Of a stretch of DNA of 64,000 nt, positions 42,541 through 56,338 are shown piece after piece; the stretch's first letter is position 1, and every line of letters starts with the position of its first letter. This stretch comes from Planctomycetota bacterium. GTDB lineage: Bacteria; Planctomycetota; GCA-002687715; CAIWVZ01. The DNA lies in the NCBI GenBank assembly GCA_044222185.1, contig JBGANV010000003.1:1-64000 (forward strand), given 5' to 3'. Position numbers and translations under genes: made by a program. A model generated the notes under the pieces. It was not told where the DNA came from. It was given only the letters and a program-made list of their open reading frames with translations, and did no database searches.

Positions 42541-43611
42541 ATGCGCGAAACCGCCATCGTCCTCACCGACGGCCTCTATTCGACGTCATCCGCAAAGACC
42601 GCGCACGGCCTGATCCGCGGGCCAAGCCGCTTCGAGATCCTGGGGCTCGTGGACGAGCCGACCGCCGGGCGGGATGCGGGCGAGGCGTTGGACGGCATCC
42701 GACGTCAGATCCCCACCTTCGCGAGCGTTGATGCGGCGCGCGCCGCCGTCGGGCGTCCCGTGCAGTGGTGCATCGTCGGGGTCGCCACGTCCGGAGGCGT
42801 CCTGCCCGACGGCCTCCGCGCCACCTTGCTGCGTTCACTCGAACAGGGACTGGGCGTCGTGAACGGGCTTCACGAGATCCTCTCGGAGGATGGCCAGTTC
42901 CAGGAGGCCGCCAATCGGGGCGGCGCGCGCATCATCGACGTTCGTCGGCCCAAGCGCCGCGCGGAGCTCCACTTCTGGACCGGGGCGATCGCCGAGGTCC
43001 GCGCGCCGCGCATCGCCGTGCTCGGAACCGATTGCGCGCTCGGCAAGCGCACGACCTGCCAGGCGATCGCGACCGCACTTCGGTCGCGCGGCCTTCGGGC
43101 CGAGATGATCTACACCGGCCAGACCGGTTGGCTTCAAGGCTCCGCGTTCGGCTTCGTACTCGACGCCACACCCAACGACTTCGTCTCCGGTGAGCTGGAG
43201 CATGCGATCGTCTCCTGTGATCGCGAAGCGCGACCCGACGTGATCCTGCTCGAGGGGCAATCCGCGCTCCGCAACCCGTCGGGTCCGTGCGGCGCCGAGC
43301 TGATGCTGTCGGGCGGCGCTCGCGCCGTCATCCTGCAACACGCGCCGGCCCGGCGCTTCTTCGACGACCAGGAGCACCTGGGCAACGAGATCCCACCGGT
43401 CGCCTCCGAGGTCGCGCTCATCGCCATGTACGGACGTGAGGTGCTGGGAATCACGCTGAACCACGAGCACCTGCCGGAGGCCGAGCGCGCGGCGGCGCGT
43501 GCACGGATCGCGGACGAGACCAGGCTGCCGGTCGCCTACCCGCTTTCGGGTGGCGTCGACGCTCTGATCCCGACCATCGAGCGCTACATCGACCGCGAGA
43601 GAGCGCGGTGA
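42541..43611 (+). CDS. dgcN: DUF1611 family protein, D-glutamate N-acetyltransferase-like
   Basis: AKTAHGLIR, NGLH, GTDCALGKRTT, TGQTGWLQG, DFVSGELEHA and EGQSAL; adjacent to an enolase-family epimerase. Confidence 0.85.
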   Translation: MRETAIVLTDGLYSTSSAKTAHGLIRGPSRFEILGLVDEPTAGRDAGEALDGIRRQIPTFASVDAARAAVGRPVQWCIVGVATSGGVLPDGLRATLLRSLEQGLGVVNGLHEILSEDGQFQEAANRGGARIIDVRRPKRRAELHFWTGAIAEVRAPRIAVLGTDCALGKRTTCQAIATALRSRGLRAEMIYTGQTGWLQGSAFGFVLDATPNDFVSGELEHAIVSCDREARPDVILLEGQSALRNPSGPCGAELMLSGGARAVILQHAPARRFFDDQEHLGNEIPPVASEVALIAMYGREVLGITLNHEHLPEAERAAARARIADETRLPVAYPLSGGVDALIPTIERYIDRERAR

Positions 43612-44672
43612 GGATCGCCGGCATCCGTACACGCACGGTGCGCGTTCCGCTGACGCGGCCGTATTCGATCGCGGGTGGCAGCTGGGATCAGGCCGAATTC
43701 GTCGTCGTCGAGATCGAGGCGAGCAACGGCATGGTGGGTTTCGGCCACGCGTCCCCCGCGGTCGAGGTGACCGGCGAGGATCTCGCGGCTTGCGAACACG
43801 CCCTGGATCCACGGAAGCTGGCCTGGGTCACCGAGCTCGACGCTCGCGATCCGCGCGGCGCCGCCGCGATCATCGAACGCCGGATTCCCGGGCCCGCCGC
43901 ACGCGCCGCCATCGACGGCGCGCTCTTCGATCTCGACGGGCGGATCGCCGGCGTCCCCGTCGTCGCGCGGCTCGGCCGGGTCCACGACACCTTCCCGACG
44001 TCGATCACGATCGGTGTGAAGGACACGGCCGCCACGGTCGCCGAGGCGTCCGAGTACCTCACCCGGGGATTCCGCGCGCTGAAGGTGAAGACGGGCGTGG
44101 ACGTCGACGACGACATCCGACGATTGACGGAACTGCGACGGACGTTCGGGCCGCACTTCCTCCTGCGAGTCGACGCCAACCAGGGCTGGGGGCCGAGCGC
44201 CATGGAGACGTTCCTGCCCCACATGGACCCGTTGGCCGTGGAGATCCTCGAGCAACCGTGCGCGCCCGCTGACGACGATCGGCTGCGCGCGCTGCCAGCC
44301 TCGATCAGGAGGCGAATCATCGCGGACGAAAGCGTCCACGACATCCGAGACCTCGAACGCCTCGCGGGACCCCATTCCCCGTTCGGCGGCATCAACGTCA
44401 AGCTCATGAAATGCGGCGGGATCGCTCCAGCGCTCCGCCTCGCAAAGAAGGCCGGCGACTTGGGCCTGTCCGTCATGTGGGGCTGCATGGACGAGAGCGT
44501 CGCGGGCATCGCCGCCGCGCTTCACGCCGCCTTGGCATCACCCGCCACGCGATACCTGGACCTCGACGGCAGCCTCGATCTCGGCGAGGATCCGTTCATC
44601 GGGGGATTCGACCTCCGCGACGGATGCCTCCATCCGCTCGCAACACCCGGGTTGGGAATTCGACCGTCATGA
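43608..44672 (+). CDS. dgcA: Enolase-superfamily (MLE subgroup) dipeptide epimerase / N-acetyl-D-glutamate racemase
   Basis: LKVKTG (KxK), RVDANQGW, EQP, ADES, NVKLMKCGG, GCMDES and DLDG; GTGA overlap with the dgcN-like gene. Confidence 0.85.
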   Translation: MRIAGIRTRTVRVPLTRPYSIAGGSWDQAEFVVVEIEASNGMVGFGHASPAVEVTGEDLAACEHALDPRKLAWVTELDARDPRGAAAIIERRIPGPAARAAIDGALFDLDGRIAGVPVVARLGRVHDTFPTSITIGVKDTAATVAEASEYLTRGFRALKVKTGVDVDDDIRRLTELRRTFGPHFLLRVDANQGWGPSAMETFLPHMDPLAVEILEQPCAPADDDRLRALPASIRRRIIADESVHDIRDLERLAGPHSPFGGINVKLMKCGGIAPALRLAKKAGDLGLSVMWGCMDESVAGIAAALHAALASPATRYLDLDGSLDLGEDPFIGGFDLRDGCLHPLATPGLGIRPS

Positions 44673-46342
44673 CCAACGAGCCCATCGACCGCCGCCGGTT
44701 CCTCGCACACGGTGCCATCGCCACTGCCGCCCTGGCCGGACTGGGAATCTCCGCCTGTGCAGGCCGGAGCACGTCGGGCGACCTCGACGTGGTCGTTCGT
44801 GGCGGAACGGTTTTCGACGGCGGCGGCAAGCCGGGATTCGAAGCCGACGTCGGGATCCGCGACGGGCGCGTCACGGAACTGGGAGCGATCGATCGGTCCC
44901 GCGGTCGCCGCGTGATCGAGGCACGGGGCTCGTGCGTCGCCCCGGGATTCATCGACATCCACACGCACAGCGACAACTCGATCTTCGAGTGGCCGACTGC
45001 CGACAGCCGGATCCGCCAGGGGTGCACGACGGAGGTCACCGGCAACTGCGGAGGCTCGGCGGCGCCACGCGATCCGGCGCACGCGGACGACGACGACGAG
45101 GACTCGATCCACGTCCACTGGACGGACATGAAGTCCTACGTGGAGGCTTGGAAGGCCAACGCCCCCGCACTCAACCAGGCGATGCTGATCGGTCACGGAA
45201 CGCTGCGTCGCGCGGTGATCGGCGAGGTCGATCGCCGAGCAACCGCCGCCGAACTGGCGGAGATGACCCGCCGCCTCGAAGCCGCGCTCGAAGCGGGGGC
45301 GCTGGGCCTTTCCACGGGGCTGGAATACGTCCCCGGGATCTACGCGCCGCCCGAGGAAATCGAGACGCTGGCACGCGTGGTCGCGCGGCGGGGCGGTCTC
45401 TACGCCACCCACATGCGCAGCGAAGAGGAGAAGCTGATCGAGGCCATCGACGAAGCACTCGCCGTGTCTCGCAGCACCGGAGTACGCCTCCAGATCTCCC
45501 ACCTGAAGGCGTGCGGTCGCGGAAACTGGAAGCTGCAGGACGCGGCCATCCGCCGCATCGAGAAGGCGCGCAGCACGGGCCTGGACGTGATGGCAGATGC
45601 CTACCCCTACACGGCCTACTCGACCACGCTCACGATTCTCCTCGAGAACTGGTCCCGAGAAGGCGGCGGCGCGGCCGTCGTCCGCCGGCTCCAGGATCCG
45701 GCGACGCGCGCGCGCATGAAGAGCGAGCTGGCGCCGCACGTGGAGCGCGATCCCGGAGCGTTCGACCTCATCGTCATCAGCTCGGCCGACGGACCGGGCC
45801 TCGAGCCCTGCATCGGCAAGAGCCTCGTCCAGATCGCCGAGATGTGGAACGTGGATCCGGCCGAGGCGACACTCCGCCTTCTGGAGGCGGCCAAGGCCGA
45901 CGTGGGCTACGTCGGACACGGCATGAGCGAGGAAAACGTCGAACGGGTACTCGCGCTCCCGTGGGTGATGATCTCGTCGGACGGTCGGAGCATGGCGCCG
46001 ACGGGGAGTGCCATCGGCAAGCGACCCCACCCGCGGTCCTACGGGACGTTCCCGCGCGTGCTCGGGCACTATTGCCGCGACCGCAGGCTGTTCGACCTTC
46101 CGACCGCCGTCCGCAAGATGACGGGGATGCCCGCCGAACGCGCGCGGCTGAGCGGCCGCGGCTCCATCGCCGTTGGCGCCGCCGCCGACCTGGTGGTGTT
46201 CGATGGGTCCACCATCGCCGACGGAGCCACTTTCGAGGACCCGCAGTCCTACCCGATCGGGCTCACGCACGTGCTCGTGAACGGCCTCGTCGTGGTCGAC
46301 GGGGGACGGCCGACGGGGGCGCGGCCGGGGCAGTGGCTGTAG
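44669..46342 (+). CDS. N-acyl-D-amino-acid deacylase (D-aminoacylase) with Tat-lipoprotein signal
   Basis: DRRRFL Tat motif and ISAC lipobox; PGFIDIHTHSD, GNCG, GLSTGLEY, HMRSE, ISHLK, SSDG and HPRSYGTFPR; ATGA overlap with dgcA. Confidence 0.9.
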   Translation: MTNEPIDRRRFLAHGAIATAALAGLGISACAGRSTSGDLDVVVRGGTVFDGGGKPGFEADVGIRDGRVTELGAIDRSRGRRVIEARGSCVAPGFIDIHTHSDNSIFEWPTADSRIRQGCTTEVTGNCGGSAAPRDPAHADDDDEDSIHVHWTDMKSYVEAWKANAPALNQAMLIGHGTLRRAVIGEVDRRATAAELAEMTRRLEAALEAGALGLSTGLEYVPGIYAPPEEIETLARVVARRGGLYATHMRSEEEKLIEAIDEALAVSRSTGVRLQISHLKACGRGNWKLQDAAIRRIEKARSTGLDVMADAYPYTAYSTTLTILLENWSREGGGAAVVRRLQDPATRARMKSELAPHVERDPGAFDLIVISSADGPGLEPCIGKSLVQIAEMWNVDPAEATLRLLEAAKADVGYVGHGMSEENVERVLALPWVMISSDGRSMAPTGSAIGKRPHPRSYGTFPRVLGHYCRDRRLFDLPTAVRKMTGMPAERARLSGRGSIAVGAAADLVVFDGSTIADGATFEDPQSYPIGLTHVLVNGLVVVDGGRPTGARPGQWL

Positions 46343-46516
46343 GCACGCGAGGGGCGTTTCGCCCCCGTTCCGTCCGGCGCGGCACCAAACCCCCGCTGGG
46401 GTGGCCCGGAAGCCGCGTTTCCGTGTGGCCGCCCCGCGACAAAGGGCTTCTCGTACCGTAGGCTCTGTCCCGGCGCGGCCACTTCGGCCACGCCTTACCC
46501 AAGCAAGGAAGTGACC

Positions 46517-47659
46517 ATGCGAAAATCGCTGATCGCGGCCGCGCTGCTGGTGTTCGCGATCCCGATCCCCGCTCAAGAGCAGGGAGGGAAGGCAGCACCG
46601 CAGACGCCGGCGGCCTATCGAGAGCTGGTCGCCGAGTTCGCCGCATCCGATGCCAAAGCCAAGGCAGCGATGAAGGCCCTCACGGCGTCAGACGAGTACA
46701 AGAAGGCCGTGGCCGACAAGGACACGGACGGTCTGAAGAAGCTCCGTGCCACGGTGCCCACCGTCGATCGCGCCGGGCTCGCGCAACGCGCGTTGAAGCT
46801 CGCGGGCGAGTCGAAGGGCGATGACGCCGCGCGGTACTACGCGTGGGTGATCTCCATCTCGGCACCCAAGGACTCCCTCAACACGGCGTTGGATGCGCTC
46901 ATCAAGGACCACGTCAAGTCTCCCGTCATGCTCGAGGTGCTGGAGGCTCCGTCGTTCACGAGTGCCATGTTGACGTCGGACGCGTCGAAGGCCGGCGAAC
47001 GTCTCGCCGCCATCGAGGCCGGGTCTGAGCTGCCGCTCGCGAAGGCCTATGCGATCTACTACGACGCCATGCGGTTGACGCGCGGCAAGGACGTGAGCGA
47101 GGAGAACAAGAAGAAGTCCGCGGAACTGATGACGAAGGCCGAGAAGCTCGCCGCCGGTACGGCGCTGGCTGATCAGATCGCCGCTCCCCGCTTCGAGAAG
47201 GAGCATCTCCAGATCGGCATGGCCGCGCCTGACATCGAGGGCGAAGACCTGGAAGGCGTCAAGTTCAAGCTCTCCGACTACAAGGGCAAGGTCGTCGTCG
47301 TCGACTTCTGGGGGAACTGGTGACCGCCCTGCCGGGCCATGTACCCACACGAGCGGTCGCTCGTGGCAAGACTGAAAGACAAGCCGTTCGCTCTCATCGG
47401 CGTGAACAGTGATGCGGACAAGGTCGAGCTCAAACCTCACCTCGTCGAAGAGAAGATCACCTGGCGATCGTTCTGGAACGGACCCAAGGGGACCTCAGGA
47501 CCCATCTCCGGGAAATGGAACGTCCGTAGCTGGCCGACGATCTACGTCCTCGACCACAAGGGCGTGATCCGCTTCAAGAACGTCCGAGGCGAAGAAATGG
47601 ACAAGGCCGTCGACCAACTCCTCGAGGAGATGGCGAAGGACACGGGCGCGAAGAAGTAG
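46517..47659 (+). CDS. Exported TlpA/redoxin-family selenoprotein (UxxC motif, in-frame UGA at 47321-47323)
   Basis: Signal peptide MRKSLIAAALLVFAIPIPA. The frame reads APDIEGEDLEG..FKLSDYKGKVVVVDFWGNW-TGA-PPC-RAMYPHE and continues without a shift to WNVRSWPTIYVLDHKGVIR; SECIS-like hairpin downstream. Confidence 0.88.
47321..47367 (+). promoter_or_regulatory. Bacterial SECIS-like stem-loop
   Basis: CACGAGC (47348-54), loop GGTC, GCTCGTG (47359-65): a 7-bp perfect stem with a GGU-containing loop starting 31 nt after the UGA. Confidence 0.75.
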
Positions 47660-47839
47660 CGTCCCGAACCCGCGCGGCCCGTGCCTCCGGCCGTCGCCAG
47701 CATGGCGAGGCCTGCACGGCGCCGCGCGGTCTCGCGCGCACCGTCGCGCCGCCGCGTCGCACTCTCAGCGACGCCGAATCCGCCCTGTGGGGTGTTGAGA
47801 CCCGATGAGCACGGGGCCAGACTCGCCTGGAGGTGCCCC

Positions 47840-49489
47840 ATGCGCATCCCAAGCCTTCGCATCGCGCTCGCGTGCGCGTTCGTCGTCGGTCTCGCAGGCG
47901 GCCAGGCGCTCCCGCCGGTCCCCATCCCCGGGGAGAACCCCCTCACTCCACAGAAGGCGATCCTCGGGAAGATCCTGTTCTGGGACGAGCAGCTCTCCGC
48001 GGAGAACACCACGGCCTGCGGCACCTGCCACATGCCGGAGGTCGGAGGGGGCGACCCGCGCGCGTTCACTCCGCGCAACCTGCATCCCGGGCATGACGGA
48101 ATCCTCGGAACAGCCGATGACGTTCGCGGCTCACGCGGCATCACGCCATGCGATGCGGTGGGTGCGTTCACGAACGACGGCATGTTCTACCCCGAGCCGT
48201 TCGTCACGAATCGCAAGGCCCCCGGGGTCATCGGTGCCCAGTGGGAGATGGAGCTGTTCTGGGACGGGCGCGCGAAGACGACCTTCCGCGACCCGGTGAC
48301 GCAGCAGGTGCTGATCCTGATGGGGGGCGCCTTGGAGAACCAGGCGCTCCAGCCGCCCGTCACCCGTGAGATGGGGTGCGACGGCGCATCGATCGTCGCC
48401 GTGGCGGCGAGGCTGGCGCAAGTCAGGCCGCTTCGTCTCGCCGTGAATCTGACGCCGGACATCCAGTCGGCACTCACCCAGCACCCCACGTACACCGAGC
48501 TGTTCGCCGCCGCGTTCGGCGATCCCGCCGTGACGCCGGCGCACATTGCCATGGCGATCGCCAGCTACGAGCGCACGCTCGTTCCCGACCAGACGCCCTG
48601 GGACCTGTGGCACGCGGGGAACGCAGCCGCCCTAACGCCCCAGCAACTCCACGGGCTTCAGCTGTTCAACACGACCTCGAGCTGCGGCACGTGCCACCCC
48701 TCCCCCCGTTTCACGGATTCGTGGTTCCACAACACGGGCCTGCGTCCGCCGGCGGAGGACATGGGCCTCGCCGCCATCACGGGCACGTGGGCCGATCGCG
48801 GGAAGTTCCGCACGCCCACGCTCCGCAACGCCGGGCTTCGCGCACCGTTCTTCCACACGGGATCGCTCGCGACGCTTGCGGACGTCATCGAGTTCTACCG
48901 GCGCGGCGGCGACTTCTCCGAGAATCGGGACGCCCTCATGTTTGCGCTTCCCCTCACGCCGTCCGACGCGGCCGACCTTCTGGAGTTCGTGCAGGTCGGG
49001 CTCACGGATCCGCGCGTGGCGCAGCGACTGCCGCCGTTCGATCGCCCGACGCTTCGCTCCGAGCTCGGACAGAACCCGGAGTTCCTGGGAGCGGGTTCGA
49101 CCGGCAGCGGCGGGCTCACTCCGCGCATGCTCGCATCGATCCCCCCTGCGATCGGAAGTCCGCGCTTCGGCTTCGGACTCGCCCACGCCGTCGGCGGAAC
49201 GACGGCCCTGCTCGGCGTGTCGTCCCGCGCGGCGCCGCCCGGAACGACGATCCTCGGCGCGCCCGTCTACCTGGACCTCGACCCGCAGGCGTCGATCCTG
49301 ATCCCGTTGGCGACCGGCGGCCAACCCGGCGCCGCGGGAGCCGGCCGGGGCTCCGTGATGGTCACGATCGCCGAGACCCCCGCGCTCTCAGGGCTGTCGC
49401 TTTTCGCCCAATGGGCCGTCCTCGACCCGTGGGCAGGAGCCGGACTCGCCGTGTCGTCCGGGGTCCGATTCACGTTCTTCGCGCCCTGA
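47840..49489 (+). CDS. Di-heme cytochrome c peroxidase/MauG family protein with extra C-terminal domain
   Basis: Signal peptide; LGKILFWD.QLS; two CxxCH motifs (both CGTCH); FWDGRA; AIASYERTL; FRTPTLRN; GGAGG RBS. Confidence 0.9.
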   Translation: MRIPSLRIALACAFVVGLAGGQALPPVPIPGENPLTPQKAILGKILFWDEQLSAENTTACGTCHMPEVGGGDPRAFTPRNLHPGHDGILGTADDVRGSRGITPCDAVGAFTNDGMFYPEPFVTNRKAPGVIGAQWEMELFWDGRAKTTFRDPVTQQVLILMGGALENQALQPPVTREMGCDGASIVAVAARLAQVRPLRLAVNLTPDIQSALTQHPTYTELFAAAFGDPAVTPAHIAMAIASYERTLVPDQTPWDLWHAGNAAALTPQQLHGLQLFNTTSSCGTCHPSPRFTDSWFHNTGLRPPAEDMGLAAITGTWADRGKFRTPTLRNAGLRAPFFHTGSLATLADVIEFYRRGGDFSENRDALMFALPLTPSDAADLLEFVQVGLTDPRVAQRLPPFDRPTLRSELGQNPEFLGAGSTGSGGLTPRMLASIPPAIGSPRFGFGLAHAVGGTTALLGVSSRAAPPGTTILGAPVYLDLDPQASILIPLATGGQPGAAGAGRGSVMVTIAETPALSGLSLFAQWAVLDPWAGAGLAVSSGVRFTFFAP

Positions 49490-49612: not shown

Positions 49613-52600
49613 TCACGCGGTGGGCTGGCGCCGGCGGAAGAGGCGCCCGAACACGCGCGCGAGATCGTCCAGGAGCGTGTAGACCACCGGCACCACGATC
49701 AACGTGAGCAGCGTGGAGGAAACCAGCCCGCCCACGATGGCGACGGCCATGGGCTGGCGGGATTCCGAGCCCTCGCCCGTGCTCATCGCCACGGGCAGCA
49801 TGCCGGCGATCATGGCGACCGTGGTCATGAGGATCGGGCGCAGACGCACCGGCCCAGCCGCGAGCAACGCCGACCGGGCATCCCGTCCGTCCTTGCGCCG
49901 CAGGACGTTCGCGAAGTCGATGAGGAGGATGGCGTTCTTCGTCACGAGTCCCATGAGGAAGATGAGTCCCATGGAGACGTAGATGCTCACCGTCATCTTG
50001 AAGATCACGAGCGATGCCAGAGCTCCGACGAAGGCCAGCGGTAGCGTCAGCATGATCGTGAACGGGTGCACGAATGATTCGAACTGTGATGCGAGCACCA
50101 TGTAGATGACGATGACGGCGAGGATCAGCGTGATCTTCATGTTGGCCGTCGTCTCGTTCATGGTGTCGGCAAAGCCGGTCCAACCGGTCGTGTAGCCGGG
50201 GGCCAGCCCCAGTTCCTTCGTGAACGCCTCGATCTCCGTCGTGGCTTCGCCGAGGACCTTCCCGTTCAGGTTCGACAAGACCGTGATCTGCCGCTGCCGG
50301 TTGTAGCGGGCAATTTCCACGGGAGCCCCGATGGTGTCGACGCTCGCGACGTTGCGCAGCTCGGCGAGGCCTCCGCGACGGGCGCGCACCTTCAACGCGC
50401 CGATCAGGTCCACGCGATCCCGCGCACCCTCGAGCAGACGCACGGCGACGTCGTACCGATCGCCGTCGGCCTTGAACGTCGCCACGTCCAGTCCACCGAT
50501 GCCGATGCGCAGCGTCCGCCCGACGTCCGCCGGCGACACGCCGATCTCGGCGGCACGCTCGCGCGCCACGTGGACGTCGGCCTCGGGCTTGCCCGTCTCG
50601 AACGTCGTGTCCAGGTCGACGTAGCCGCCAGCCTTCCGCATGCGGTCCATCAGCCCCTTCGCCACGCGATCGAGCTCCGTGAAGCTCTGGCCCCGGAGTT
50701 CATACTGCACCTGGGCCCATCGGCGCCCGCCGCCGGAGACCCGCGGCACGATCTGCACGGAAACGACCGCGTCCTTGACGTCCGCGAGAAGTCCGCGAAC
50801 GGTCTGCATCACCTCTTCCTGAGTGCGCGCGCGCTGCGCCTTGGGGAGGAGCTTCACGTAGAGCGAGCCCTCGTTCGACCGTGCGAGTTCGTCGGCTCCG
50901 ACGGCATAGAAAGAGTAGACGCGCTCGGGCAGATCCTTGATCCGCGCGGAGATCGAGTCGAGGATCCGCGACGTCTCGCTGACCGAGGCACCCAGCGGCG
51001 CGCGCACCTTGACGTTGAATTCGCTCTGATCCTCCACGGGGATGAATTCGAAGCGCAGCTTCCCGCCGAGCGACCCGATGGACGCGAAGGCCAGGATCGC
51101 GAGCAGCACGACGGCCCAGCGGAAGCGCAATGCCGCCCGCAACGTGCCGCCGTAGAGGTGCTCGAGGCCCGTGAACAGCTTGTCCAGCCCCCGAAAGAGG
51201 ACGTTCATTCGTCCGGGCTTCTTCAGGATGCGCGAGGAGAGCATGGGGTCCAGCGTGAAGGACACGAACATGGACAGGAGCACGGCTGCGGAGACGGTGA
51301 GAGCAAACGACTGGAAGAAGCGTCCGACGAGCCCACCCATGAAGGCGACGGGGACGAACACGGCCACGACGGACAACGTCGTTGCAACGACGGCGAGCCC
51401 GATCTCGTTCGTGGCGAACTCGGCGGCCTCGCGGGCCGGCATGCCCTCCTCCACGTGGCGCATGATGTTCTCCTGGACCACGATGGCGTCGTCGATCAGG
51501 AGCCCGATCGCGAGCGTGAGGCCCAGGAGCGTCATCATGTTCAGCGTGAACCCCAGCGCGGACATCAGCATGAACGTGCCGACGACGGATGCGGGAAGCA
51601 CGAGCGCGCTGATGAACGTGCTGCGGACGTTCAGCAGGAAGAGCAGCACGATCAGCACGGCGTAACCACCGCCGTACACCAGGTGATGTGTGACTTCACC
51701 GACCGCGCGGCGGATGAACGGAGCCTGCTCCTCGGCCATCTCGATGCGGACCCCGCGGGGCGCAAGCTCGACCTTGAGCTTCTCGACCTCGGCCACGACG
51801 GCGTCAGCCACCTCGACCGTGTTCGTTCCCGCCTGGCGGCGCACGGGCAGCGCGATGCAGGGCTTGCCGTCCAGTCGAGCCCGCGAATTCTCCTCCTCCA
51901 AGCCGTCTTCGGCGTGGCCGATGTCGCGGAACTTCACGGCGGCGCCGTTCTTCTCCGAGACGACGAGTTCGTCGAACTCCTCGGCGGACGCAAATTCGGC
52001 GGCGAGCTTGGTGACCACGTCCTTCGCACCGAGCTGGATCTTGCCGCCGGGCATCTCGACGTGCTGGCGTTTCAGGGCATCCACCACGTCGAGCACCGTC
52101 AGTCCGTACTGATCGAGCTTCTTGGGGTCGAGCCAAAGCCAGATCTTGCGGTCGCGAAACCCGATGAGGCGCGCCGACCCGACGTTGCGAATCCGCTGGA
52201 GTCGCTCCTTGACCGTCTTGTCGGCGATCCGCCCGAGCTCGCGGTAGGGCATGTCACCGGCGATGACGACGGAGCAGATCGGCGCCGAGTCGACGTCGAA
52301 CTTCTCGATCACGGGCTCCTCGACGTCGTCGGGCAGGTTCGCGCGGATCGCGGCCACCTTCGCGGTGATCTCCTGGAACGCCACGTCGATGTTCTTGCCG
52401 AGCTCGAACTCGATGACGACCTGCGAGACGGAATCGGCGCTCGTGGAGCGCAGGTGCTTGATTCCGGAGATGGTGTTGACCGCCTCCTCGATCGGATCCG
52501 TGACGGTCGTTTCGATCGTCTCCGGATCGGCGCCGGGGAGCTTCGTCACGATCGTGACGATCGGAAACTCGACGCGTGGAAACAGGTCGACGCCAAGTCG

Positions 52601-52690
52601 CTTGAAGGAAACGGCGCCGAACACCACGAGCGACGCCACGAGCATCGACGTGAACACCGGGCGCGTGATCGCCACACGAGAAAGAAGCAT
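49613..52690 (-). CDS. RND efflux transporter permease (AcrB/AcrD/AcrF family)
   Basis: 1025 aa; GLLIDDAIVVQENI, GLVTKNAILL, RLRPILMTT and GGLVSST. Confidence 0.96.
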   Translation of the reverse strand: MLLSRVAITRPVFTSMLVASLVVFGAVSFKRLGVDLFPRVEFPIVTIVTKLPGADPETIETTVTDPIEEAVNTISGIKHLRSTSADSVSQVVIEFELGKNIDVAFQEITAKVAAIRANLPDDVEEPVIEKFDVDSAPICSVVIAGDMPYRELGRIADKTVKERLQRIRNVGSARLIGFRDRKIWLWLDPKKLDQYGLTVLDVVDALKRQHVEMPGGKIQLGAKDVVTKLAAEFASAEEFDELVVSEKNGAAVKFRDIGHAEDGLEEENSRARLDGKPCIALPVRRQAGTNTVEVADAVVAEVEKLKVELAPRGVRIEMAEEQAPFIRRAVGEVTHHLVYGGGYAVLIVLLFLLNVRSTFISALVLPASVVGTFMLMSALGFTLNMMTLLGLTLAIGLLIDDAIVVQENIMRHVEEGMPAREAAEFATNEIGLAVVATTLSVVAVFVPVAFMGGLVGRFFQSFALTVSAAVLLSMFVSFTLDPMLSSRILKKPGRMNVLFRGLDKLFTGLEHLYGGTLRAALRFRWAVVLLAILAFASIGSLGGKLRFEFIPVEDQSEFNVKVRAPLGASVSETSRILDSISARIKDLPERVYSFYAVGADELARSNEGSLYVKLLPKAQRARTQEEVMQTVRGLLADVKDAVVSVQIVPRVSGGGRRWAQVQYELRGQSFTELDRVAKGLMDRMRKAGGYVDLDTTFETGKPEADVHVARERAAEIGVSPADVGRTLRIGIGGLDVATFKADGDRYDVAVRLLEGARDRVDLIGALKVRARRGGLAELRNVASVDTIGAPVEIARYNRQRQITVLSNLNGKVLGEATTEIEAFTKELGLAPGYTTGWTGFADTMNETTANMKITLILAVIVIYMVLASQFESFVHPFTIMLTLPLAFVGALASLVIFKMTVSIYVSMGLIFLMGLVTKNAILLIDFANVLRRKDGRDARSALLAAGPVRLRPILMTTVAMIAGMLPVAMSTGEGSESRQPMAVAIVGGLVSSTLLTLIVVPVVYTLLDDLARVFGRLFRRRQPTA

Positions 52691-52726
52691 GTTGGGTTCT
52701 CTGCGGGTTCGGGCCAGCCGGGACCG

Positions 52727-53962
52727 TCAGCGCGACTCGGGTGCTGGAGCGTCGTCCTTCAACTTCTCGGGAGGGCCGACGGCGACGAAGTCCTTCTCCG
52801 TGAGACCCTCGCGCACGACCACGCCGTCGCTGAGGTTCTCGGCCACGTTCACGACGAGCCGTCGCAGGACGCCGCCGCGGGCGACGTAGACCACGGCCTG
52901 CCCGCCCTCGGTCGACAGGGCACGCCGAGGCACCACGACACCCGACTCGCTGCGGCCGAGAGTCACGACGCCCTGCACGAATGCACCCGGGATCAGGCGC
53001 CCGCGCCGCGCCGGAGGGATCTTGGCGCGGAAAGCGAAGACGCCGTCGTTCGGGTCCACGGTTCCCGTCGTGCGGTCGACGGTCAGATCCAGCGGCCCGT
53101 CCACCAGCGGCGACTCGAGCGTCACCGTGGTCGTCCTGGCCACCATCCGCTTCAGGTCAGACTCGGGCAGTCGAAGCTCCGCCTCGAGGTCCGTGTCGGA
53201 GACGAGCGTGAGCACCTCGGTGAACGGCGCGTGGTTGACGTAGTCCCCCAGCGTCCGATGGCGTTGGACCACGACGGCCTCCCGCGGGGACTTCACGACC
53301 GTGTCGCGAAGATCCACCTCCGCGAGTTCGAGTTGGGATCTGGCCTCGGCGACCGTCGCGGAGGCCACGGCCAGCTCCGTCGCCGTCGCTCCGGCCTTCG
53401 CCTCGTCGAGCCGGGCCGCCGCTGCGGCGCGCTGGGCCTCCGCCACGGCGATCTGCGCCCGCACCTCTTCGAGCTTCTTCGCCGGCATCGTGTGGTCCTC
53501 CTCCACGAGTCGGCGGAAGCGTGCCTCGTCGCGGCGCAGGTCGTCGAGGCGCGCGTCGATCTCGGCGAGCGCGGCGGCGAGCACGGCCACGCGTTCGGGG
53601 CGAGTACCGGACTTCAGATCCGCGAGCCGGGCCTCCGCGGTCGCGAGCATGGCCTTCGCCGTGGCGACGCGGGCCTGGAACACGGTCGGTTCGACCCGAA
53701 AAAGCTCGGCGTCCTTCGCCACGTGCGATCCCACGTCGATGGGCGCGCCGGCCGCGTCCACGCCCCAGACCGTGATGCGCCCGGCGACTCGCGCGCCGAT
53801 CTGCGCCTGCCAGGCGGGAATGACCCGACCGGACGCGCGAACGGTGGAACTCCCGAGGGGCTTCAGGGGAAGGAGGCGGAAAGTCTCGTCCTGCGCCGTA
53901 GCGACTCCGAAGGTGACGACGGCGGCGAAGACGAACGGCAACGATTGGAGCGCTCGATTCAC
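52727..53962 (-). CDS. RND efflux periplasmic adaptor (membrane fusion protein)
   Basis: IGARVAGRI, VGSHVAKD.ELF, long coiled coil, VKSP, LIPGAFV and VVVPRRAL. Confidence 0.9.
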   Translation of the reverse strand: MNRALQSLPFVFAAVVTFGVATAQDETFRLLPLKPLGSSTVRASGRVIPAWQAQIGARVAGRITVWGVDAAGAPIDVGSHVAKDAELFRVEPTVFQARVATAKAMLATAEARLADLKSGTRPERVAVLAAALAEIDARLDDLRRDEARFRRLVEEDHTMPAKKLEEVRAQIAVAEAQRAAAAARLDEAKAGATATELAVASATVAEARSQLELAEVDLRDTVVKSPREAVVVQRHRTLGDYVNHAPFTEVLTLVSDTDLEAELRLPESDLKRMVARTTTVTLESPLVDGPLDLTVDRTTGTVDPNDGVFAFRAKIPPARRGRLIPGAFVQGVVTLGRSESGVVVPRRALSTEGGQAVVYVARGGVLRRLVVNVAENLSDGVVVREGLTEKDFVAVGPPEKLKDDAPAPESR

Positions 53963-55473
53963 GGGTGGTTCTCCCCCGACGCGGGTCGACTGGAAGCAGA
54001 GGGTTCGACGACGACCGGTGCCGCGAGTGTCTCGGCCTCGTCATCCGCCGTGCCGGCGACGTCGTCGGCGATGGCGGCGCGCAGCTCGTGCCAGGCCACG
54101 TGGACGTCCACGCGCGCCCGGTTCAGTTCGCGTTGCGCCGCCGACCGATCGGCGATCGAGCGAGCGACGTCGGCGCCACTCGCGAGGGCCTCTCGCTGGC
54201 GCGCGCGCGTCTGCTCGAGGAGGCGATCCTGCGCGGCCACGAGGCGCTCGCCGGCGACGATGGCGTCGTACGCTCGAACGAGATCCAGCACGCGCAGGTC
54301 CACCTCGTAGACGACGCCCATCGCGACGAGGAGAGAGCGTTCCCTTTCCACGTCGACCTGTTGGCCAGCCGCGTGGTACTTCCAGAGGGTGCGCGACCCG
54401 TTCAGCAGCGCGTGCGCAACGGTGATTCCGCCCGTGAAGAAGGACGGATTCACGACGTGCGAATTGGACGTCCACTCGAAATCGAACGTGGCGTCGAGCC
54501 GCGGGAAGAACTCGGCGAAGATCTGTCGGACGCGCGCTGCGGCGATTCCGCGCTCGAGATCCTGCGCGCGGACCTCGGGCCGCCTCATCAAGGCCGCCTG
54601 CTCCAGGTCGCGGACCGCCGCTGCCGAGCCGGGCGGCGTGGGCGGCGGCGGCACCGTGGTGTCGATGCGGAACTCCGTCCAAACGGGAAGAGACATGGTG
54701 CGAGCGAGGGCCGAGCGCGCCACGAGCACGTCGCGGCGTGCAAGCGTCTCATCGCGTTCGGCGCGTGCGAGTCCGGCTTCGACGAAAGCCGTGTCGGCGC
54801 CCGCCCCCACGCCTTCCCGCTCGAGCGCGCGGGCGACGCGGACCGCCTCGCGGGCGGATGCAACCTCCGCCCCCAGCAGCTCGGCGTCACTGACGGCTCC
54901 GGCGAGGTGGACGTAGGCCACACGCACGTCGCGGATCAGGGCCTGGCGTGCCCGAAGCGCGGCGAGGCGCTCCTGCATGCGCTCGTCCTTGGCGATCCCG
55001 TAGGCGAACCACGTGGCACCGAAGTCGAAGATCGGAAGGACGAGCCCCAGGGTGAACCGCTCGGTCTCCTTGTCGTCGAAGGCTGCGACGCCCGCCGCCG
55101 CCTTCACGAGCGGATCGTTGTTGCGCTCCTTCACGACGAATCTCGCGTCGCCCTGCGGAAGGAACGCCGCGAACGACGCGCGCACCTGATCGTCGCGGAG
55201 TTGGGTCTGGAGCAGCGTCACGCGGTACGCGAGGTTGTTGCGGAGGGCGATGGATTCGCAGTCCGCGACCGAAAGGACGCGTCCGCGCGCGAGCGCATTC
55301 GTGACGAGGTCGATCCCCCCGGCGGGGGTGACGTCCATGGCGTCGAGGCCCTCGGATGCAACCCGGTCGGCGACCGTGGAGTTGAAGCGGTCACGCTCGT
55401 CTTCGCGCTCGAAGCGCTCGGCGGTGCAGGCGACGAACGACAGCAGGAGAAGGGGTGCAAGCCGTGCATTCAT
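53959..55473 (-). CDS. TolC family outer-membrane efflux lipoprotein
   Basis: Lipobox FVAC; ALRNN, FLPQ, LPIFDFG, ALMRRPEV and FFPRL; ATGA overlap with the tetR stop. Confidence 0.88.
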   Translation of the reverse strand: MNARLAPLLLLSFVACTAERFEREDERDRFNSTVADRVASEGLDAMDVTPAGGIDLVTNALARGRVLSVADCESIALRNNLAYRVTLLQTQLRDDQVRASFAAFLPQGDARFVVKERNNDPLVKAAAGVAAFDDKETERFTLGLVLPIFDFGATWFAYGIAKDERMQERLAALRARQALIRDVRVAYVHLAGAVSDAELLGAEVASAREAVRVARALEREGVGAGADTAFVEAGLARAERDETLARRDVLVARSALARTMSLPVWTEFRIDTTVPPPPTPPGSAAAVRDLEQAALMRRPEVRAQDLERGIAAARVRQIFAEFFPRLDATFDFEWTSNSHVVNPSFFTGGITVAHALLNGSRTLWKYHAAGQQVDVERERSLLVAMGVVYEVDLRVLDLVRAYDAIVAGERLVAAQDRLLEQTRARQREALASGADVARSIADRSAAQRELNRARVDVHVAWHELRAAIADDVAGTADDEAETLAAPVVVEPSASSRPASGENHP

Positions 55474-56144
55474 CGCGCCGGCTCCCTCACGCCGAGGCCG
55501 CCGGAGATGAGCCGCCACAGGAGGTCGAACTGAGTCTCCGCCGGAGGCGCCTGGTCGGCCGTCGCCCAGCGCGCGAGGGTCACCACGAGCACGGCGTCGA
55601 TGAACTCCACCAGCTCCGCGGCGGGAACGTCGCTCCGAACCGATCCCTTGCGCTGGGCGCGCCGGAACGCCTCGACGTCGTGTCGCTTCGCGGCGAAGTA
55701 GGCCTCCAGAGCGTCGCCCCGAAGATTCGAGGGGATGTGCGCGCGGCCGCCCGGGCTTGCCGTGTAGAACGTGCGAAAGAACTGGCGATGGGCGTTGAAG
55801 TACTCGAGGTAGGAGCGCAGGGCCGTCCGCAAGCCGTTGACGGGGTCGGGTTCGTCGTCGAACGCGCGGTGGTGCGCCACCGACAAGGCCGCGCAGTGTT
55901 TCGACACCATGGCGCTGAAGAGATCCTCCTTGCTCTTGAAGTAGAGGTAGAGGGTCCCAGCGGCGCAGCCAGCCTCGCGAGCGACGTCCTGCATGGTCGA
56001 GCGCTCGAAGCCGTTCCTTCCGATGACGGCCTCCGCCGCGTCGACGAAGGCCTCCGCCGTCGCGGCACGCCGGCGCGAGCGGAAGTCGTCGCGCGCCGGC
56101 GCGCGTGCGGGCGCTCGGCGGGATGAACGGCTGTTCATTTTCAT
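55470..56144 (-). CDS. TetR/AcrR family transcriptional regulator
   Basis: AAEAVI..NGFERSTMQDVAREAGCAAGTLYLYFKSKEDLF HTH; first gene of the efflux operon. Confidence 0.93.
   Translation of the reverse strand: MKMNSRSSRRAPARAPARDDFRSRRRAATAEAFVDAAEAVIGRNGFERSTMQDVAREAGCAAGTLYLYFKSKEDLFSAMVSKHCAALSVAHHRAFDDEPDPVNGLRTALRSYLEYFNAHRQFFRTFYTASPGGRAHIPSNLRGDALEAYFAAKRHDVEAFRRAQRKGSVRSDVPAAELVEFIDAVLVVTLARWATADQAPPAETQFDLLWRLISGGLGVREPAR
56123..56138. promoter_or_regulatory. Candidate TetR operator palindrome
   Basis: ATGAAC-GGCT-GTTCAT inverted repeat overlapping the tetR start region. Confidence 0.6.
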
Positions 56145-56338
56145 GATCCGCCGTTTTACGACGCGAGTCGGTGATCTCAACGACGGGGGTCGTGCCGAAC
56201 GCCGCGACCGGTGACCTACCCCCGAAAACCTGCGTGAGCGGCCAGGGCCTCCGCACGACGGGCCGCGATGTCCCCCACGCCGGTTACCCTCCTCGCCGAC
56301 CCTCGACGGAAAGGTGAGGCACAGCCTGTGCGAGTCAC

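Follow-up and report, generated by a model that had tools for sequence, protein, structure and literature searches.

A very probable selenocysteine-containing oxidoreductase of the TlpA/ResA type with an additional helical-repeat domain in a member of the Planctomycetota

TlpA of Bradyrhizobium, ResA of Bacillus subtilis and CcmG/DsbE of Escherichia coli are cysteine-based thiol-disulfide reductases that operate outside the cytoplasm. Here we describe a gene at positions 46517-47659 of a 64,000-nucleotide (nt) stretch of DNA (the window), which is part of contig C7 of a Planctomycetota assembly (G000; 7.08 Mb, 16 contigs, 93.8% complete). Homologues with named sources assign the organism to this phylum. 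To judge from its sequence, it is very probably one gene for an exported thiol:disulfide oxidoreductase of this type in which the nucleophile is selenocysteine (Sec, U) in a U-P-P-C motif; its reading as a selenoprotein gene is strongly supported and its UGA is almost certainly read as Sec. Comparable selenoproteins have been predicted before. Table 1 of PMC13188914 contains four relevant predicted families, including a Prx-like thiol:disulfide oxidoreductase (PF00578; UxxC, UxxU), with selenoproteins recorded as early as 2006 in, among others, Geobacter and Syntrophus (Zhang et al.; PMC1794560, in its tables), and the same table has a thiol-disulfide isomerase-like selenoprotein (cd02966, UxxC) predicted from the Sargasso Sea metagenome, for which it cites Zhang, Fomenko and Gladyshev (2005). 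Sec machinery and selenoproteins have also been reported in two planctomycetes (PMC4807772). We found no paper on the selenoproteome together with Planctomycetota, nor one naming the present subfamily or its helical domain, and the strings “Planctomyc,” “TlpA,” and “thiol” are absent from the main texts on BSepDB (PMC13326102) and deep-Sep (PMC12013277); the subfamily may well already be in BSepDB.

With the Prx-like family the protein studied here shares AhpC-TSA (PF00578) as best Pfam match (65 bits), a UxxC motif with Sec in the first position, a thioredoxin-like fold and an origin in Sec-decoding bacteria, a likeness by PF00578 and UxxC in which the family is represented by its description in the table. 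The members listed in PMC1794560 are from Deltaproteobacteria such as Geobacter and Syntrophus, whereas ours derives from the Planctomycetota and has a probable signal peptide and a helical N-terminal domain (N-domain) of ca. 200 amino acids (aa). With the cd02966 selenoprotein, as characterized by its table row, it shares a TlpA-like redoxin domain, the UxxC motif and the status of a computational prediction. The fold (Foldseek matches 1st9, 2b1k, and 4nmu; target TM-scores 0.75-0.85), a motif preceded by Trp, the cis-Pro motif WPT and, presumably, a location outside the cytoplasm are common to our protein and TlpA, ResA, and CcmG; it differs from them in having Sec for the nucleophilic Cys, an extra helical domain, and NCBIfam scores far below the cut-offs. 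The ResA-like WAxxUGC selenoprotein (NF041054) is likewise a TlpA/ResA-like protein with Sec in the active-site region; membership in NF041054 was rejected at 31.4 vs. 300 bits and with a W-U-x-P-C motif instead of UGC. The protein is, in short, of a known kind of predicted selenoprotein, and what is new is a member from the Planctomycetota that carries an extra helical-repeat domain.

The gene and the elements that bear on its recoding are the following:
46517-47659, forward strand: the whole, very probable selenoprotein gene, 380 codons with one Sec codon, stop codon TAG at 47657-47659
47321-47323, forward strand: UGA almost certainly read as selenocysteine, residue 269 counted from ATG 46517, aligned with the first Cys of W-C-x-x-C
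47321-47332, forward strand: U-P-P-C redox motif in the context DFWGNW-U-PPC
47348-47365, forward strand: bacterial selenocysteine insertion sequence (SECIS) hairpin, stem 47348-47354, loop GGUC 47355-47358, stem 47359-47365

Two open reading frames (ORFs) in the same frame, 46511-47323, which ends in TGA, and 47339-47659, are separated by a spacer of 15 nt (CCG CCC TGC CGG GCC). When the TGA is read as U they form a single frame, with a length of 382 residues if it starts at GTG 46511 and of 380 if it starts at ATG 46517. The frame remains open on read-through, coding conservation extends to both sides of the UGA, and the Pfam domain spans it; alignments with homologues indeed run unbroken across the TGA (e.g., query residues 21-374 at 58% identity). 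The initial annotation of this DNA had proposed just such a layout, i.e., two ORFs split by TGA CCG CCC TGC CGG GCC, a TGA at the first Cys of a TlpA-type W-C-x-x-C motif and a single 380-aa read-through product, and all of this is borne out, with ATG 46517 as the start. Its expectation that gene callers would split the gene agrees with the public protein collections, which store forms truncated at the TGA: the window's own entry (P0002) has 268 aa, and P0013, P0016, and P0076 end exactly at DFWG.W.

The homologues bear on the residue for which the TGA stands. Searching the read-through protein against 41 related genomes (E ≤ 1e-10) returned homologues in 33 of them, and every one of the 58 best-scoring genomic matches (≥94 bits) has exactly one in-frame TGA, with an additional TAG in one. 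A scan of 30 fetched loci (L020-L049) for the pattern [DNEH]-x-[WF]-x-x-[WF]-U-x-x-C yielded 37 motif matches in 28 loci, in which the codon for the first Cys is TGA in 29 cases and TGC or TGT in 8. Alternation between Cys and TGA among homologues, which the initial annotation had proposed as a check, falls at exactly this codon. Most of the Cys-type matches are homologues of greater distance that belong to the same phylum and have WATW-C-x-P-C. A collection of 5.8 billion proteins contains full-length Cys homologues composed of the same two domains (e.g., P0008, P0022, P0121), the N-domain is common to Sec and Cys homologues in the protein alignment, and Cys occupies the Sec position in 8 out of 9 full-length homologues aligned. 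The exception, P0038, reads EFWGNW-VIASQ instead of U/C-x-x-C; it may have lost its redox activity, or the gene call may contain a frameshift. A tree built from 51 rows of the redoxin domain has one clade (support 98/93) in which 32 rows with Sec and 8 with Cys are mixed. This clade is internally a polytomy, and the well-supported branches require no fewer than three changes between Sec and Cys; the tree has no root or direction of change, and one row (L055_+1) sits on a very long branch. Replacement of a redox-active Cys by UGA is the classical Sec/Cys pair and counts for Sec as the inserted residue. An extra in-frame TAG was encountered in L083 (a metagenome contig, 7 codons past its TGA) and in G019:C231:13780-14868, which may represent decaying copies or sequencing errors.

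The genome also possesses the machinery required, the search for which had been suggested at the outset: all four components, tRNA-Sec (74.7 bits vs. a gathering score of 47; ARAGORN SeC(tca)), directly after selA (487 bits), selB (330 bits, whole model matched), and selD (370 bits, with one in-frame TGA of its own), are present and score above curated cut-offs. TGA is the usual stop codon, ending 596 of the 704 long ORFs on contig C7, so that the recoding is site-specific and the codon is not reassigned. Within the 7.08 Mb of the genome, the 17-mer of the hairpin is found at only four sites (C7:47348, C5:71337, C12:29481, C14:22116), in every case downstream of a TGA that lies in frame in the same motif and at 27 nt from its U, and three more genes with [FY]-W-U-x-P-C and a different downstream sequence bring the number of UxxC redoxin genes to seven. 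The six further W-U-x-x-C redoxin genes are located at C5:71310(+), C12:29508(-), C14:22143(-), C1:395665(+), C1:1682722(-), and C4:240737(+). The C5 copy, for which crude frame extension crossed several TGAs and the match was restricted to residues 233-298, may be degraded.

Two genes outside the redoxin family point to the same recoding signal. SelD (C14:427704-428624) has its TGA (C14:427734) in the canonical place, GGG-U-ACK, and downstream of it a stem rich in GC with the loop GGUC (GUC if the closing G-C pairs) at nt 36-39. A CMD/AhpD-like gene (C4:172037-172612, L180; PF02627, 46 bits), with a TGA at C4:172280 in the known CxxU motif NGCFY-U-TVAHG, has a 9-bp stem capped by GGUC at 25 nt past the UGA and is another selenoprotein candidate truncated by gene callers. 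In these two genes the GGUC caps lie 25-33 nt past the UGA; three unrelated selenoprotein genes with the same loop at a similar spacing are what would be expected from one SelB reading one loop. A genome-wide scan for GGTC-capped stems 24-37 nt past an in-frame TGA gave 15 matches, compared to 20 and 26 for the controls TGG and TGC, and was set aside as unspecific because the genome is GC-rich; among its matches, only those in the four redoxin paralogues and in a single CMD-like gene appeared genuine, and its open-frame filter missed SelD.

The hairpin itself, CACGAGC-GGUC-GCUCGUG, is a perfect stem of 7 base pairs (bp) with a 4-nt loop (RNAfold) and lies within the codons for H-E-R-S-L-V. Its loop sequence, GGUC, is also that of the E. 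coli fdhF element. The hairpin begins 24 nt past the UGA, with 31 nt between UGA and loop (loop base 1 is nt 35 when the U of UGA is 1), as the initial annotation had described, and has a folding energy of -10.5 kcal/mol when folded alone. The consensus bacterial SECIS (bSECIS), as summarized in a section of PMC13188914, has a loop of 3-9 nt, a stem of 4-16 bp, a G in the first two loop positions, a distance of 16-37 nt from the UGA, and a minimum free energy of at most -7.5 kcal/mol; with its 4-nt loop, 7-bp stem, G first in the loop, 31-nt distance and -10.5 kcal/mol, the present hairpin falls within each of these ranges. Like the SECIS of E. coli fdhF, it is a stem-loop located inside the gene a short distance 3' of the UGA, and its apical loop has a G with a U after it, which in E. 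coli are the SelB-contacting G23 and U24 (PMC8659212); in contrast to fdhF, it has no conserved lower stem. An Rfam scan of the window at gathering scores gave no matches, i.e., no curated family covers this element.

Comparison of sequences indicates that selection acts on the hairpin as RNA. In a set of 18 distinct PHERSLV-containing homologues from genomes, which share 36-58% identity with the window protein over near full length and up to 69% where the match is redoxin-only, the codons CAC GAG CGG TCG CTC (H, E, R, S, L) are identical in 18 out of 18, and only the sixth codon of the hairpin, for Val, varies (GTG 14, GTT 2, GTC 2). Elsewhere in the 75-codon stretch compared, 20 invariant residues have degenerate codons, and only 1 of them (Ile -29) uses a single codon; Leu -17, Ser -16, Gly -3, and Pro +8, for example, use 4, 5, 4, and 4 codons, respectively. 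A metagenome contig scan with the pattern D-F-W-G-x-W-TGA-x-P-C, which is blind to the hairpin, provided at least 120 stretches with 119 distinct 66-mers, of which 88 encode HERSLV and 86 of these 88 contain the exact hairpin 17-mer. In the 89 HERSLV rows (the row of the window included), Arg +11 is CGG in 88 and Leu +13 is CTC in all, whereas Arg +16 is distributed over CGG (15), CGC (14), CGA (9), CGT (8), and AGA (3), and Leu +17 is spread over five codons. Rare variants that retain the pairing were also detected: G-C to A-U in two metagenomic sequences at the cost of a Leu-to-Phe change, C-G to U-A in one, together with a G-U wobble and Val-to-Met, and a C-G flipped to G-C with His-to-Asp in another. 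Over all 120 rows, 89.5% of the cells at the paired positions can pair, compared to 15-41% after a shift of the partner by 1-3 columns, and both-sided changes occur in 4 of the 7 pairs; neither value was reached in any of 500 shuffles. The conservation of the hairpin among homologues, another point raised in the initial annotation, thus shows itself as frozen synonymous sites and compensatory variants. A Cys version of the HERSLV peptide pattern was found in none of 401 Planctomycetota genomes, the TGA form giving 3 matches in the genome studied here; P0073 in the protein collection is a Cys homologue that keeps the HERSLV peptide.

The remaining features concern the start and the domains of the protein:
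46505-46511, forward strand: Shine-Dalgarno-like AAGGAAG, 5 nt before ATG 46517, putative, recognized in the sequence
46511, forward strand: alternative start codon GTG
46517-46573, forward strand: probable Sec-type (secretory) signal peptide MRKSLIAAALLVFAIPIPA, read by eye, with a guessed cleavage site
46610-47206, forward strand: all-alpha helical-repeat N-domain, residues 34-232 of P0001, as predicted in AlphaFold2 (AF2) models
47213-47644, forward strand: TlpA/ResA-like thioredoxin-fold (redoxin) domain, residues 235-378 of P0001, from Pfam and Foldseek

ATG 46517, with AAGGAAG just upstream, is a likelier start than GTG 46511; a sigma-70 consensus scan of 46200-47900 gave no promoter. 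The N-terminus consists of MRK followed by fifteen mostly hydrophobic residues, in a region with a predicted local distance difference test score (pLDDT) below 50 in AF2, and homologues have hydrophobic N-termini as well; from its sequence it is probably a Sec signal peptide. The full-length AF2 model (pLDDT 85.9) shows residues 1-27 disordered, thirteen helices in residues 34-232 and a thioredoxin fold in residues 243-378. The helical N-domain modeled alone reaches a pLDDT of 95.3. It has no Pfam family up to E = 10, its best Foldseek match has E = 0.12, and its best VIA-align matches (Z 9.9; root-mean-square deviation 4.9 over 176 residues) are designed helical repeats and TPR proteins; a specific relationship with these was rejected since, for helical repeats, a Z of 9.9 is too low to carry meaning. 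The models therewith suggest that this domain of ca. 200 aa is a helical repeat without a specific known relative. The redoxin domain, which holds the active-site W-U-P-P-C plus the cis-Pro motif WPT, scores above the gathering scores of AhpC-TSA (65.4 bits), Redoxin (61.5), and Thioredoxin_8 (48.3) over residues 235-367, and Foldseek retrieves thiol-disulfide oxidoreductases, ResA, CcmG, Etrx2, and StoA for it (E 2.9e-10 to 2.4e-7; target TM-scores of 0.67-0.85 for single-domain matches and 0.44 for 4yod), in keeping with a thioredoxin fold that has the additional insert of the TlpA/ResA type. The architecture initially proposed, a helical N-domain fused to a redoxin domain behind a signal peptide, is confirmed by AF2, Pfam, and Foldseek for the two domains, the signal peptide being probable by eye.

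UGA termination competes with Sec insertion in bacteria, and the helical domain is predicted to fold alone. It is, therefore, conceivable, but very unlikely in our view, that selenium limitation leads to a stable 268-aa helical protein with a function of its own, the selenium supply toggling between the two products. However, the truncated form would carry ca. 35 residues of an incomplete thioredoxin fold (235-270), and no N-domain-only homologue with a stop other than TGA was present among the 120 proteins listed, in which the “shorter” length class was not searched. Moreover, the idea of selenium supply as a switch, which was raised in the initial annotation, applies equally to any bacterial selenoprotein.

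The recoding context, the Sec machinery, the Sec/Cys pairing, the constraint at the RNA level and the fold are established, but a number of observations weigh against the reading of the gene as one for an exported selenoprotein. The Sec residue is deduced from the comparison of sequences. The loop lies 31 nt past the UGA, compared to ca. 18 nt in E. coli fdhF, i.e., 13 nt further, and the hairpin is a perfect helix that lacks the bulged U17 of fdhF (PMC8659212). The stability of the 80-nt stretch does not exceed that of its dinucleotide shuffles (z = 0.46; 134 of 200 fold at least as well), and the hairpin was, therefore, judged by comparison, with stability unused as evidence. Covariation is thin (5 cells in 120 sequences, with a score that 21 of 500 shuffles attain), since the helix shows little variation, and two pairs are lost in one HERSLV variant that has AGG as its Arg codon. 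No NCBIfam cut-off is reached (ResA, NF002854, 75.1 vs. 170 bits; TlpA, NF047696, 56.7 vs. 230; DsbE, TIGR00385, 36.7 vs. 123), and the signal peptide was judged by eye only. A contig from an RNA library (X4), which covers 47310-47542 with 0 differences, TGA included, extends only 11 nt beyond the TGA on its left side and so does not bridge it, and such a library is no proof of transcription. Finally, a functional link to the downstream peroxidase gene was dropped, as this gene adjoins the redoxin gene in only 1 of 39 loci (L050; tblastn, L021-L059, most with flanks of only 1.5 kb).

Two of these points, the identity of the inserted residue being derived from sequence and the lack of the E. 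coli bulged U, would also fit read-through without Sec, in which a near-cognate tRNA inserts, e.g., Trp or Cys and the hairpin is a generic stimulator. We consider this highly improbable: the genome has the full Sec machinery, the codon replaces a redox-active Cys, a hairpin with the same GGUC cap follows the UGA at the canonical Sec position of SelD, and the element studied here agrees with the bSECIS model. Equally improbable is that the gene is a pseudogene or a split gene, with the TGA as a real stop after a helical protein of 268-270 aa and the downstream 106-aa ORF separate or dead. This is precisely what gene callers made of it (P0002, 268 aa), TGA is the commonest stop in the genome, and the extra TAG in two of the homologous copies suggests that some copies may be decaying. 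Yet TGA is found at the same codon in 29 motif matches of genomic loci and in at least 120 metagenomic stretches, the protein is conserved in frame on both sides, and homologues have Cys at this position. Furthermore, the Pfam redoxin domain (residues 235-367) spans the TGA, which implies that neither half would be a complete fold.

The stretch is partly present in twenty public runs, from bioreactor, sludge, and wastewater metagenomes or designated simply as “metagenome.” Four of these were aligned, all with depth at 47321-47323, and no other letter occurs there. All run data are contigs, in which uncovered parts and the contig breaks at 47301-47310 are uninformative and depth cannot rank expression. 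In run X5 the contig depth rises from ca. 3 to 150-265 over the motif and hairpin only (window 47246-47386), where loose ends diverge; this stretch is evidently common to many organisms of the X5 sludge community, and assemblies break there. The initial annotation had recognized that reads with TGC or TGT would expose the TGA as a sequencing error, but such an error in sequencing or assembly is hardly credible, and the least so of all explanations, since nothing in its favor was found beyond the metagenome-type assembly with contigs breaking in a widely shared motif region, while the same TGA and hairpin recur in four paralogues of the genome and in dozens of other genomes, the four runs have no alternative letter, and the exact RNA-library contig has the TGA.

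With the gene read as one for an exported selenoprotein, the UGA at 47321 would be decoded by Sec-tRNA(Sec) delivered by SelB, which would be recruited by the hairpin CACGAGC-GGUC-GCUCGUG. For export, catalytic cycle, electron donor, and clients we infer the following scheme. The protein would be exported via the Sec secretion pathway, its helical-repeat domain probably serving to bind a partner or substrate. In a periplasm-like compartment the selenolate would attack the disulfide of a client, the mixed selenenylsulfide would be resolved by the motif's C-terminal Cys, and the Se-S bond may then be re-reduced by a membrane shuttle of the CcdA/DsbD type; the genome has one gene for a DsbD_TM/CcdA-type membrane protein (C7:834867-835496; 93 bits).

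The locus has no cytochrome-maturation gene context. Upstream, on the forward strand (42541-46342), are three consecutive genes, for DUF1611 (198 bits), an enzyme of the mandelate racemase/muconate-lactonizing type (144 bits), and an amidohydrolase (99 bits), which look like a small peptide or amino-acid salvage cluster; the amidohydrolase neighbor was found in none of the 39 loci L021-L059, most of which have flanks of only 1.5 kb. A di-haem cytochrome c peroxidase (47681-49489, forward strand; CCP_MauG, 117 bits) starts 21 nt past the stop of the selenoprotein gene and may be co-transcribed with it. Further downstream, on the reverse strand, lies an RND efflux operon (49613-56256) with an AcrB-type pump (938 bits), an HlyD-type adaptor and an outer-membrane factor.

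Other members of the family have different RNA elements after the UGA. A second class, with the peptide H-E-K-x-L-V (L040, L041, L042, L068, L087, L092, L111, L133, L157, L160), is without the GGUC hairpin and has two hairpins, at nt 12-31 and 35-53 past the UGA, the latter with the loop CGUGA or CGUGC. Both hairpins show compensatory changes (e.g., GGCGCU/AGCGCC vs. GACGCU/AGCGUC), and the second loop, at 38 nt past the UGA, is just outside the consensus of 16-37 nt. In a third class, with P-H-L-[KN]-E-L-H (L089, L139), a 6-bp stem carries the loop CGUGCC ca. 17 nt past the UGA, and the two loci differ by a compensating G-C to A-U change in the stem.

The finding corrects the annotation of this gene and of many relatives, which are stored cut at the Sec codon as 268-aa forms, with the redox-active half lost. 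It adds the Planctomycetota and an architecture with an N-terminal helical repeat to the catalogued UxxC thiol:disulfide-oxidoreductase-like selenoproteins, and leaves the knowledge of Sec insertion and of the action of such enzymes unchanged. It also provides a very clean SECIS signature in the form of an 18-nt hairpin, frozen in its synonymous positions and common to SelD and the CMD-like gene, which is usable for annotating the selenoproteome of the lineage. The seven UxxC genes of this genome, and up to six TGA-bearing matches in a relative, lead us to the tentative idea, which we regard as possible rather than likely, that paralogous exported TlpA-like reductases with Sec for Cys occur throughout the order, as a family with at least three SECIS solutions after U-x-P-C. 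If true, the HERSLV peptide would be dictated by the RNA and not by the protein, and the family would form a natural series for the tolerance of a SelB lineage to SECIS position, in which one could ask whether a scarcity of selenium leads to differences in decoding among the paralogues. These bacteria would then rely on selenium for much of their thiol-reducing network outside the cytoplasm.

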